Assembly: GCF_024502345.1 (NCBI RefSeq)
Contig: NZ_JALDNN010000001.1
Source: Escherichia coli
Lineage (GTDB): Bacteria; Pseudomonadota; Gammaproteobacteria; Enterobacterales; Enterobacteriaceae
Length of the DNA: 64,000 nucleotides
Direction: 5' to 3' (one strand)
The notes under the pieces were generated by a model, which saw only the letters and a program-made list of their open reading frames with translations, ran no database searches and was not told the origin of the DNA. This document shows, piece after piece, positions 20,716-23,082 of the stretch. Position 1 is the stretch's first letter. The number at the start of each line of letters is the position of its first letter. The translations under genes were made by a program, and so were the position numbers.

Positions 20716-20998
20716 CGCTACGTTGCTGGTCTGGAGTAATGGGTGTGGCAGAGGGCGTAATCCCCTGGCGCTCTCTCCTGAGCTGGCGTACCCAGCTCTC
20801 AAGCGTAGTAGAACCCACATTCATCGCTTCACTGGCCTGTCGATATGAGTAGCCCTTATCAACAATCAGCTGTGCACATTCCAGCCTGAACTCAGGGGTG
20901 AAACTACGTTTGGTTTTCTTGTTCATTAAGTCACCTGTTTTGTGTTGAGGTGAGAATATCACCTTTAATCAGGTGGCCAAATTTACTGTGCCACTACA
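20716..20998 (-). mobile_element. IS3-family (IS911-like) left end and orfA 5' part, truncated
   Basis: OrfA-like [55 protein letters not shown]; terminal sequence TGTAGTGGCACAGTAAATTTGGCCACC resembles an IS3-family IR. Confidence 0.6.
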
Positions 20999-21300
20999 AG
21001 CCGCCTTATATTCACCAGCAGGTTTTTCATCAGTGAAATGGCGCGTCCCACAGAGAGAATTTCAATAAACAGGTTAAGGTCGTTTTGTTTCAGGTAGTTC
21101 AGGAAGTCTGGCTCACTGAGACTTTCCCCTGCCTCCTCGTAAAAGCAGGCAATCGCTTCCATGTTATTCATGTAGGTGCTGATTGCGGCGTACTCGTGTC
21201 CTTCCATCTGTTCAAGGATGACCCTGACAGACTGCATCCGGTCGGTCAGTTTCGCATGTATGTCTGCATATTTAGCCTGACGGGGATTTATTTCACTCAT
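20983..21300 (-). CDS. Hypothetical 105-aa protein downstream of the MCP gene; 3' end overlaps the IS3-family end
   Basis: ORF co-oriented with and 100 bp downstream of the MCP; no recognisable family. Confidence 0.4.
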   Translation of the reverse strand: MSEINPRQAKYADIHAKLTDRMQSVRVILEQMEGHEYAAISTYMNNMEAIACFYEEAGESLSEPDFLNYLKQNDLNLFIEILSVGRAISLMKNLLVNIRRLVVAQ

Positions 21301-21399
21301 TATTACTGTCGCCTGTAAATAACCGGCACAGTGCGAACACCATGCCGGGAGATTATGGCTGACAAAACGGGAACGACAGGATCCCGCTGTTGTCGGGGG

Positions 21400-23082
21400 T
21401 CAGAAGGTTTCCCAGTTCTCGCTGGCGTGTTGTTCCGTTTCACGAACGGACTTTACCGCTTTAACCTTACTCTGCGGGCTGGTGTTGCTGATTGTCGGTA
21501 CTATGGTATTTTTTCGTTCAGCATCGCGTTTTTTATTATCACGGAGACGAAATACGCTCACCTTCTCCTGCAGAATCCGTGACTGATTCTGCAACGAAGC
21601 GGCAGTGGCTGCAGACTGTTCCACCAGAGCTGCATTTTGTTGGGTGGTGCTGTCTATCTGGCCCATGGCGCTGTTAATCTGGGCAATACCATCTCCCTGC
21701 TCACGACTGGCCTTGGCTATTTCGTCAATCAGCCCTTCCATGCTCTGGACGTTACTGATGATATCCTCCATTCCCCTGTCTGCTTTTTCAACCAGGGTAC
21801 GGCCGGATGCAATGCGGGAAACGGAGTCATCAATGAGCTCTTTTATTTCCCGCGCGGCAGAAGCACTGCGCTGAGCCAGATTACGAACCTCTCCGGCCAC
21901 AACCGCAAATCCACGGCCGGACTCGCCGGCGCGTGCGGCTTCCACGGCAGCATTAAGCGCGAGAATGTTGGTCTGGAAGGCAATCCCGTCGATGACCTGG
22001 ATGATGGCTGTCATTTCAGACGAGGTGTCGTAAATCTCCTGCATCCGGGAAGACACCTCACTCATGACCACTCCATTCTGTTTCACAATGGCCGTTGTTT
22101 CTGTCACAAACTGGTAAACCTGTGCTGTATTGCCGGCAGTATTGTTTATGGTGGCCGTCAGTTGTTCCAGAGTGGCCGCCGTCTGTTCCACACCGGCAGC
22201 CTGCTCTTCGGTGCGGGCTGACAGGTCTGTATTACCACTGCTGATTTCTGCTGCAGTCAGCGCAATATTGTCCGCTCCCTGACGTACTTCCCGGACGGTG
22301 TTACTCAGACTCCCGCACATATCACGCAGTGCCTGCATCAGTTGCCCCAGCTGGTCCTGTGAGTCCACTTTAATCTCCACACACAGGTTACCTTCCGCCA
22401 CTTCCCGGGCAATCCGGACGGCTGAAATCAACGGACTGGTAATGCTTCTGGTGATCAGCCATGCCAGCACACCTCCCAGAAGAAGCGCCATACACCCAGT
22501 GATGATCAGTGTCAGTATGGCTGCCGTACCATTATCAGCGATAACTTCACCCGCTTTATCTATGCTTGTTTTTTCGTATTCCACCAGTGCCTGCAGACTG
22601 GCCATGTAGTCATTTATGATCGGTAATTGCTGTGACTCAATGAAGTGGTTCAGGGCTTCACGGTCCCCCTGCTCACTGATCTGAAGAGCTTTTACCAGGG
22701 TATCTGCATACACCTGACGCTTTTCACCAATGGTTTTCAGCAGCTTAATACCCTGCTCTGAAGTAAGCTCCCTGTTAAATTTATCCTGCAGTATATCCAC
22801 GCGAGCACGGGTTTTCTCTATCCGCTGCTGTGCATATGTCCTGATATCCGGGTCCCCCGACGTCAGCAGAACCAGTCCAAGCGCACCGTTTGATTCAATA
22901 CCGGTCTGCCATTCATTCGCCATACGCTCCTGCAGAAGATAATTATTCATCACGCGATCGGTGGAAGTGAGCATAGAGTTCAGGTACCCCACTCCGGTCA
23001 CTGTCATGATCATGATAAGAACCAGAATTAGGCTGAAGCTGCCAGCCAGCCTGATACCCACACTAAAGTCTTTGATTTTCAT
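21400..23082 (-). CDS. Methyl-accepting chemotaxis protein, four-helix-bundle sensor, HAMP, Tar/Tsr-like signalling domain, C-terminal NWETF
   Basis: 560 aa; signalling domain VIDGIAFQTNILALNAAVEAARAGESGRGFAVVAGEVRNLA, methylation-region motifs, NWETF pentapeptide. Confidence 0.85.
   Translation of the reverse strand: MKIKDFSVGIRLAGSFSLILVLIMIMTVTGVGYLNSMLTSTDRVMNNYLLQERMANEWQTGIESNGALGLVLLTSGDPDIRTYAQQRIEKTRARVDILQDKFNRELTSEQGIKLLKTIGEKRQVYADTLVKALQISEQGDREALNHFIESQQLPIINDYMASLQALVEYEKTSIDKAGEVIADNGTAAILTLIITGCMALLLGGVLAWLITRSITSPLISAVRIAREVAEGNLCVEIKVDSQDQLGQLMQALRDMCGSLSNTVREVRQGADNIALTAAEISSGNTDLSARTEEQAAGVEQTAATLEQLTATINNTAGNTAQVYQFVTETTAIVKQNGVVMSEVSSRMQEIYDTSSEMTAIIQVIDGIAFQTNILALNAAVEAARAGESGRGFAVVAGEVRNLAQRSASAAREIKELIDDSVSRIASGRTLVEKADRGMEDIISNVQSMEGLIDEIAKASREQGDGIAQINSAMGQIDSTTQQNAALVEQSAATAASLQNQSRILQEKVSVFRLRDNKKRDAERKNTIVPTISNTSPQSKVKAVKSVRETEQHASENWETF

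Follow-up and report, generated by a model that had tools for sequence, protein, structure and literature searches.

An intact chemoreceptor gene and a linked small gene form a putative mobile chemosensory cassette in Escherichia coli

Introduction

Does a complete chemoreceptor gene that lies between insertion sequences (IS) in a rearranged genomic island still equip its bearer with a working sense, or is it passenger DNA? The question is raised by a 64,000-nucleotide stretch of Escherichia coli DNA (NCBI RefSeq assembly GCF_024502345.1, contig NZ_JALDNN010000001.1), here called the window, which carries on its minus strand a gene for a methyl-accepting chemotaxis protein (MCP) of 560 amino acids (positions 21400-23082) and, starting 99 bp downstream on the same strand, a small open reading frame (ORF) of 105 amino acids (20983-21300). 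An initial annotation, made from the sequence alone, had singled out this pair, and both ORFs lie exactly where it placed them. We read the two genes as a putative functional, mobile two-gene chemosensory cassette, with a probability of about 0.7, and we base this reading on the gene structures, a promoter match, homologies, the distribution of the unit, its pattern of substitutions and the linkage of its genes.

Results

The ORF, its Pfam matches and an AlphaFold model all describe a complete receptor. The frame runs uninterrupted through 560 codons, with no stops or frameshifts, and the protein ends in ...ASENWETF; Pfam identifies 4HB_MCP_1 (PF12729, 1e-15), HAMP and MCPsignal (PF00015, 5e-47), with TarH as a weaker match to the sensor (7.5e-6). 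A first transmembrane helix (TM1, about residues 10-33) leads into a periplasmic four-helix-bundle (4HB) sensor (34-187), which is followed by a second transmembrane helix (TM2), a HAMP domain (209-255), a signalling hairpin of 36 heptads and a disordered tail (516-560) bearing the NWETF pentapeptide, the tether for CheR and CheB, whose codons lie at 21403-21417 on the minus strand. The model is that of a canonical receptor: its periplasmic helices span residues 34-74, 78-105, 109-137 and 141 onward (6-74, 78-105, 109-137 and 141-229 when the membrane parts are included), TM2 leads on into HAMP, the cytoplasmic hairpin turns at residue 385, and residues 516-560, with a pLDDT below 50, make up a flexible linker for the xWxxF pentapeptide. 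In structure comparison it most resembles E. coli Tsr as present in the core signalling unit (8c5v, E=1e-18). The identical protein sequence is carried by 202 contigs on record, and its protein cluster counts 436 members.

Likeness to Tsr extends along the whole cytoplasmic signalling region. Residues 213-515 align with Tsr without gaps (phmmer; 6s1k and 8c5v), and because this alignment is gapless the two receptors fall into the same 36-heptad class. The hairpin tip, GIAFQTNILALNAAVEAARAGE(S/Q)GRGFAVVAGEVRNLAQRSA, a segment that contacts CheA and CheW and forms trimers, is unlike Tsr at 1 of 42 residues, and the methylation motifs at the positions of Tsr 297, 304, 311 and 493 are kept as E293, Q300, Q307 and Q489, each of them after an E. 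Tip, length class, transmembrane and HAMP layout, methylation sites and pentapeptide are all those of the 36-heptad Tar/Tsr class, and with the Pfam matches they bear out the suggestion of an additional receptor, gained by horizontal transfer, whose signalling domain is of the Tar/Tsr class and whose tail is NWETF. In the alleles of two E. coli plasmids (L025 and L030) two nucleotide changes, which turn ACC into ATG, give NWEMF in place of NWETF, in a cytoplasmic half that is otherwise almost invariant.

The periplasmic sensor, by contrast, had been judged different from those of Tar and Tsr, and it is. Against the NCBIfam equivalogs for Tar, Tsr, Tcp and Tap the protein scores 338, 336, 326 and 299 bits (about 337 bits for Tar and Tsr), where the cut-offs are 900, 947, 900 and 903, all at least 900; these models align only from about residue 100-190 on, in the cytoplasmic part, and a comparison of ligand-binding domains (LBDs) gives a sensor like that of MCP2201. 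A copy of any of these four receptors is rejected on these scores, and the gene is neither a simple duplicate of tar or tsr nor inactivated by mutation. Architecturally it is an unremarkable receptor of the Tar/Tsr class that bears a sensor of the MCP2201 type. With Tsr and Tar it shares its overall architecture and a sigma-28 promoter, besides the cytoplasmic features just described, whereas its sensor cannot be aligned with theirs by sequence and its gene lies on mobile DNA with a linked small gene. By analogy with what is established for Tar and Tsr, the receptor should join mixed host arrays and should adapt by itself. We also considered Tls, a truncated form of Trg by which E. coli of phylogroup B2 sequesters FlhDC (PMC12623472). 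What the two have in common is a receptor-related gene outside the canonical set, which differs from one E. coli lineage to another and bears on motility (PMC12623472), but Tls is a cytoplasmic fragment without a sensor, whereas the present protein is complete and is unrelated to trg, and we rejected Tls as a relative.

Upstream of the receptor gene lies a predicted class-3 flagellar promoter for sigma-28 (FliA), TAAAGTTT-N11-GCCGATAA, at 23352-23378 on the minus strand, which matches at 16 of 16 positions what we take to be the full enterobacterial sigma-28 consensus. It stands 270 bp upstream of the ATG, with its -35 element 2 nt from the terminal repeat of an IS26, and the pattern TAAA-N14-16-GCCGATAA occurs a single time in the window, on the MCP strand, where 0.04 occurrences would be expected by chance. 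The site is present in all the copies that we fetched (L001-L003), and the chromosomal orthologues of the MCP in Citrobacter farmeri have a site that matches at 13 of 16 positions; it would therefore be a native class-3 flagellar promoter that travels with the MCP gene. The predicted 5' untranslated leader of about 260 nt between promoter and ATG (23083-23351, minus strand) holds one weak sigma-70-like site (23195-23167), and an Rfam scan of 20900-23500 returned no family in the leader or in the intergenic region.

Promoter, MCP gene and small ORF together make up a 2.4-kb unit (23380-20999) between IS26 and the end of an IS3-family element. Of 5,426 complete E. coli genomes about 15 have this unit, on chromosomes as well as plasmids, and copies with 98.6-99.9% identity to it lie on plasmids of Citrobacter, Klebsiella, Enterobacter, Serratia and E. 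coli. In the inspected contexts (eleven annotated) it is bordered by an IS on at least one side and usually on both, mostly by IS26 upstream and by IS1, IS110 or the IS3-family end downstream. The initial annotation had described the pair as island-borne, which is correct in that it sits in a remnant of the pheV island but understates its mobility, for the IS-bounded module circulates mainly on plasmids. In the window the IS26 covers 23381-24030 on the plus strand; its terminal inverted repeat, GGCACTGTTGCAAA, ends at 23381, its far end is truncated, and it is collinear with the IS26 of locus L001 up to 24030. IS26 is annotated at the same distance from the unit in L001, L003, L027 and L029. 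On an Enterobacter plasmid (L002, 10462-10773) the upstream boundary falls at the same nucleotide (23380) and is followed by different sequence and then by an inverted IS3-like end, with no IS26, and the 30-kb E. coli plasmid L030 carries a second, different MCP gene (512 amino acids, 6246-7784) across the IS26. Insertions of the IS66 family are found in three chromosomal copies (E. coli ABWA45, 2273-PO3 and 2021CK-01361), in the MCP gene at about 22917, in the small ORF at about 21053 and in the leader at about 23159. The closest diverged relatives of the MCP, at 76-80% identity, come from short assemblies; the next, at about 60%, are encoded on the chromosome of C. farmeri and on large contigs of Trabulsiella, Pantoea and Erwinia.

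How the mobile alleles differ from one another is an unexpected pattern in the data set of ten full-length alleles that we compared at the DNA level, to which we added 29 protein variants for residue combinations. The 560-codon frame is open in 10 of 10. Sensor codons 34-190 have taken 33 amino-acid-changing and 2 silent events, a ratio that departs from neutrality (binomial P=0.006), against 9 and 2 events in the rest of the MCP (codons 191-560), and the density of non-synonymous changes in the sensor is ninefold that in the rest of the protein (P=5e-11). The polymorphic sensor codons number 25, of which 23 carry amino-acid changes and 2 silent ones; pairs of alleles differ in the sensor by up to 18-20 non-synonymous and by 0-2 synonymous changes (362 and 109 sites). 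Outside the MCP gene, 11 of 300 upstream non-coding sites, 0 of 99 intergenic sites and 2 of 297 sites in the small ORF are variable. Three or four residues occur at codons 46 (N/D/E), 47 (N/Y/D/E), 92 (R/A/S), 129 (L/Q/K) and 146 (H/N/R), and three at codons 173 (S/I/R), 182 (A/D/H) and 187 (A/T/K), in many combinations over the 29 protein variants. As a source of this variation a diversity-generating retroelement is unlikely, in that bases other than adenine have changed as well and the changes extend over 470 nt (a reverse transcriptase was not searched for), and recombinational import from a diverged allele would have added many silent changes, of which only 2 were found.

The sensor domain that varies so much among near-identical alleles (codons 34-187; 22522-22983, minus strand) has a homologue of solved structure. 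A profile of this domain from the present protein and its relatives matches the LBD of MCP2201 from Comamonas testosteroni (5xub) without gaps at E=2e-22, and in Foldseek the sensor superposes on MCP2201 with a TM score of 0.85 and an rmsd of 2.0, Tar being far behind. MCP2201 numbering equals present MCP numbering plus 13. The MCP2201 sensor responds to citrate as an attractant and to malate as a repellent, both of which bind in a pocket inside the bundle made up of W71, V75, A78, R81, T104, T105, T108, R135, Y138, R142 and Y172 (PMC10735184; PDB 5XUB, 6ITS and 7WRM). Residues 57-70 of its alpha1 helix pack on residues 183-195 of alpha4 in the partner subunit, and a swing of this segment sets the sign of the response (PMC10735184).

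Much of this pocket can be recognised in the present receptor. W58, R122 and Y159, the equivalents of W71, R135 and Y172, are invariant or nearly so in the family, Y125 (Y138 in MCP2201) is kept in this protein, and E52/R53 and D175 are retained as the equivalents of the E65/R66-D188 dimer pair. The full set of citrate and malate contacts is nevertheless incomplete, with L129 in place of R142 and R92 in place of T105. Beyond the shared fold, pocket residues and dimer pair, the two sensors differ in sequence (only about 20% identity), in the replaced R142 equivalent, in the variability of the T104 and T105 equivalents and in host lineage. Position 129 is an arginine in 39 of 39 orthologues outside the mobile cluster, and we infer that these orthologues are carboxylate sensors. 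The ancestral R129 is absent from every mobile allele, where L, Q or K takes the place of R142.

When the variable positions are laid over the MCP2201 structure, sites 91, 92 and 129 fall on the ligand contacts T104, T105 and R142, and positions 45-47, 56, 173, 178 and 182 map to the zone in which alpha1 packs on alpha4 of the partner subunit (alpha4'); the window allele has T91, R92 and L129, and other combinations in the series are T91/A92/L129, N91/S92/Q129 and N91/S92/K129. We read this distribution as positive selection that remodels the sensor pocket and the signalling interface among circulating alleles. It is also conceivable that the excess of replacements reflects relaxed constraint, or a driver other than the ligand such as evasion of a toxin or phage that makes use of the periplasmic domain. 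The ratio of non-synonymous to synonymous rates (dN/dS) is inflated among very close relatives, the yardstick in our comparison amounts to only 2-4 synonymous events, the conserved R129 has been lost in the whole cluster, and the MCP2201 pocket accounts for just half of the variable sites. However, under relaxed constraint one would expect a ratio near 1, where about 5 is observed; eight sensor codons have been hit repeatedly, several of them with three or four different residues; and none of the full-length alleles has acquired a frameshift or stop. In addition, three variable sites coincide with ligand contacts and most of the others lie in the alpha1/alpha4' zone that sets the sign of the response in MCP2201 (PMC10735184). 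We regard this explanation as unlikely.

The second gene of the unit, the small ORF (20983-21300, minus strand), encodes a predicted cytoplasmic four-helix protein: the AlphaFold model has four helices at a pLDDT of 80.6, and no signal peptide was apparent when the sequence was judged by eye. Its 3' end had been described as overlapped by an IS3-family end, and the junction lies at 20998, where the left end of that element begins (TGTAGTGGCAC...), so that the last four codons and the stop are IS sequence; residues 1-100 are native. Relatives are 116-121 amino acids long, and the window copy diverges from them past residue 100. The missing tail is a stretch that the family does not conserve, and the core through NLLxN (NLLVNIRR here) is intact; the traits of the family, namely a length of 100-120 amino acids, a helical structure and the conserved core QL..Y...Y.NN / D..L / NLL.N, are all present. 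Comparison of the 99 native codons with three relatives gives dN/dS values of 0.27, 0.20 and 0.08, and judged by these ratios the small ORF is a real gene under purifying selection.

The small protein had been said to have no recognisable family, and this stands for the curated libraries, for neither Pfam nor NCBIfam nor PHROGs gave a family match. It does not stand for a wider homolog search: among 1.84 billion representative proteins we found 31 clusters that form a conserved, uncharacterised family linked to MCPs. A structure search of AFDB50 brought up only uncharacterised proteins (from Salmonella, Citrobacter, Musicola, Pantoea, Rahnella, Pectobacterium and Erwinia), a fold search of the PDB nothing better than E=0.7, all generic helical bundles, and a profile search of the family against PDB sequences only chance matches. 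SwrA (PF17423) was rejected as an identity for the small ORF, with a best i-Evalue of 0.0044 for one member, 2 of 31 members at or below 0.1 and no SwrA among the AFDB50 structural matches. A locus search with the family over 100,044 species genomes returned Trabulsiella only, within the limits of a peptide pattern and not as a true census. By its sequence, the small ORF belongs to a rare, conserved, uncharacterised, MCP-linked family of the Enterobacterales, which we define here.

The linkage to receptors is seen in the ten family contexts that we examined. In eight of them a family member lies directly beside an MCP gene, almost always just downstream, and the two remaining contexts are neighbourhoods of motility genes; the partner MCPs whose C-termini we read, across seven contexts, end in xWxxF in 9 of 9 cases, and the gaps between MCP and small gene in relatives range from -4 to +178 bp. 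Three different relatives in Salmonella and Citrobacter koseri, on DNA that resembles integrative conjugative elements (ICEs) and contains TraF_2, Hha, ArdC and DUF1281 genes, follow a different, TarH-type MCP at 100-109 bp. In Trabulsiella odontotermitis the small gene comes after a 61%-identical orthologue of the present MCP, in Pectobacterium parmentieri it comes 87 bp after a 4HB MCP on a 4.4-Mb, apparently chromosomal contig where transporter genes flank the pair, and on a plasmid of Erwinia rhapontici it overlaps the MCP stop codon by 4 nt. Metagenomic contigs have it after an MCP that ends in GWTHF; as two copies, one on each side of an FlhD-like gene, enclosed by two MCPs; next to flagellin, motA and cheZ; and ahead of an FlhD-like gene with an MCP 2 kb away. 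The FlhD-like genes (78-79 amino acids, PF05247) adjoin the family in two unrelated metagenomic contigs (L015, 4656-4892; L023, 4375-4614), which hints at a link to FlhDC-level control.

A block of the window (21003-21420, minus strand) that takes in the final 7 codons of the MCP gene, the spacer between the genes and the native part of the small ORF shares 92% identity with the ICE-like loci of Salmonella and C. koseri. From a start within the NWETF codons it extends across the small ORF, and since the receptor bodies in those loci are different genes, the pairing of MCP and small gene has survived receptor replacement. One might still suppose that the small ORF is an unrelated neighbour, a housekeeping gene of plasmids or ICEs that is tied to the MCP only by a shared mobile context. 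It is true that many family members belong to ICE-like or plasmid DNA and that many of the MCP copies on plasmids come without the small ORF, and the chromosomal MCP orthologue of C. farmeri lacks this companion. Against this, the linkage holds across family members that are only 20-40% identical, it involves MCPs of two sensor types and the apparently chromosomal Pectobacterium locus, the genes overlap by 4 nt in Erwinia, and the contexts without an adjacent MCP still hold flagellin, motA, cheZ or FlhD-like genes. A merely shared context strikes us as very unlikely.

Whether the two genes are co-transcribed, as had been proposed, is a separate matter. No promoter-like site was found directly before the small ORF, and the 4-nt overlap in Erwinia favours, by analogy, an operon arrangement. 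On the other side, a GC-rich hairpin followed by TTATTT, which resembles an intrinsic terminator, lies between the genes (21323-21348, minus strand), about 20 nt before the start codon of the small ORF, and it is conserved with TTTTTTT in relatives L005, L008 and L013, where the small protein is only about 40% identical. Because a conserved hairpin of this kind separates the genes, co-transcription is no more than plausible, and our best guess is that the small ORF is expressed by attenuated read-through from the receptor promoter.

In the window the unit is set in a rearranged, IS-rich remnant of the pheV island, as judged by comparison with E. coli C 236-04A. The order is glcA, a truncated yghJ, an IS30 fragment (20507-20721), the left end of an ISEc31-like IS3-family element with the start of orfA (20719-20998, minus strand), which the IS30 fragment cuts at 20719, then the small ORF, the MCP gene, the truncated IS26, an IS3 fragment and an integrase remnant. 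This last stretch (24997-25792, minus strand) has an integrase domain match, is 99.9% identical to L001 2635-3430 and includes the 3' 49 nt of tRNA-Phe (about 25744-25792). No complete tRNA lies within the window, so only a remnant is left of the island's original attachment site, and the exact arrangement occurs in none of the complete E. coli genomes of the collection.

From such surroundings one could argue that the cassette is inert, decaying passenger DNA caught between IS26 and the IS3-family element and spread by IS26 activity on resistance plasmids. In favour of this, insertion sequences flank the unit, and its copies are often cut short or disrupted; Klebsiella pneumoniae plasmids carry it, few E. 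coli genomes have it, and the island remnant around the window copy is heavily rearranged. Other features speak against it. The promoter is perfect in all copies although an IS end lies 2 nt away, the receptor frame is open in all ten full-length alleles, the small ORF is under purifying selection, and a signalling half that is almost invariant beside a sensor whose changes are nearly all replacements is the opposite of neutral decay. We hold the inert-cargo explanation to be quite unlikely and keep to that of a functional cassette.

Three features of the surrounding DNA may be recorded here. Of yghJ (sslE; 20185-20510) only the first 110 or so codons are left, including the proline-rich repeat; the IS30 fragment cuts the gene at about 20510, and the strain is therefore without the SslE mucinase. 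Beyond the tRNA-Phe remnant lies a type I restriction-modification system (26630-32644) with hsdR (1038 amino acids), a presumed hsdS (409 amino acids) and hsdM (518 amino acids), which suggests that a second island segment abuts the first. Just downstream of hsdR a 48-bp unit is repeated 5.9 times (26113-26393), within an ORF of 114 amino acids (26070-26414, minus strand) that consists of DDRLRTIATFDGKTLK repeats and has no NCBIfam match.

Discussion

The observations above let us propose how the cassette would act in a cell, although expression, incorporation into arrays, ligand class and the role of the partner protein are points that we infer. In whatever flagellated enterobacterium hosts the cassette, FliA would transcribe the receptor gene along with those for flagella and chemotaxis. 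The receptor would insert in the inner membrane, join host arrays through its Tsr-like hairpin tip and adapt on its own, with four sites for methylation and with NWETF as the tether of CheR and CheB. The sensor would be a four-helix bundle of the MCP2201 type, in which each subunit has an internal pocket for small organic acids. The ancestral carboxylate-binding arginine (R142 in MCP2201) has been replaced in the mobile alleles, and the pocket and the alpha1/alpha4' zone appear to be undergoing remodelling by positive selection, so that ligand range, response sign or both probably differ between alleles. The product of the small gene, most likely made by the read-through proposed above, would be a helical accessory protein of the cytoplasm that accompanies receptors with a pentapeptide, and this protein probably acts on the receptor or on motility control.

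Several points weigh against this reading. Klebsiella pneumoniae is normally non-flagellated, so the cassette cannot work on the K. pneumoniae plasmids that also carry the unit, and numerous copies are truncated or have been hit by IS66, IS26 or IS1, as one would expect of dispensable cargo. The upstream non-coding region is rather variable among alleles, the hairpin that resembles a terminator may cut off the small ORF from the promoter of the MCP gene, and the small protein of the window is without its native tail. The loss of R129 could mean that ligand binding has been lost, not retuned. The dN/dS estimate for the sensor is rough, because the synonymous count is small and the alleles are recombinant.

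The functional cassette may be taken a step further. It might be a self-contained, mobile "plug-in sense", in which a receptor that every flagellated enterobacterium could express and fit into its arrays has had its pocket and dimer interface re-engineered by selection during spread on plasmids and is accompanied by a dedicated accessory partner of a new class. In that case the partner might help foreign pentapeptide-bearing receptors to enter or tune arrays, or might couple the receptor to FlhDC-level control, and the whole would spread on plasmids through bacteria of the gut, hospitals and wastewater. We offer this extension tentatively, as a possibility that is on balance doubtful.

Chemoreceptor genes on mobile DNA have precedents. 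The mcp gene of Tn1721/Tn1722 is a transposon-borne MCP on enterobacterial plasmids and sets the precedent of a chemoreceptor gene on a transposable element of resistance plasmids (PMC7096625); it is distinguished by its gene context, for Tn3-family tnpA, tnpR and res accompany it, whereas none of these flanks the present unit in the eleven annotated contexts. MCP genes are also described as cargo of ICEs of the ICEPan family (PMC4458695), which recalls the relatives of the small ORF in the ICE-like DNA of Salmonella and C. koseri; the portions of that report on which we draw mention neither a linked small gene nor a sigma-28 promoter nor allele diversification (PMC4458695). As far as we have found, three aspects of the cassette have not been described: a perfect sigma-28 promoter within an IS-bounded unit shared across genera, diversification by replacements alone at contact positions, and the small partner family. 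Acquired chemoreceptors have reportedly been noted in some E. coli strains by Borziak et al. in 2013, and the present one may be among them.

Chemotaxis in E. coli is the reference for bacterial signalling, and it is known almost wholly from five chromosomal receptors. If our reading is true, sensory range would be something that can be acquired like a resistance gene, and on the same plasmids. The natural series of alleles, with replacements at the contact positions of a solved homologue, offers material for the study of how ligand specificity or response sign evolves in a 4HB sensor. The small-protein family, tied to pentapeptide-bearing receptors across four enterobacterial families, is a concrete candidate for a missing accessory component.

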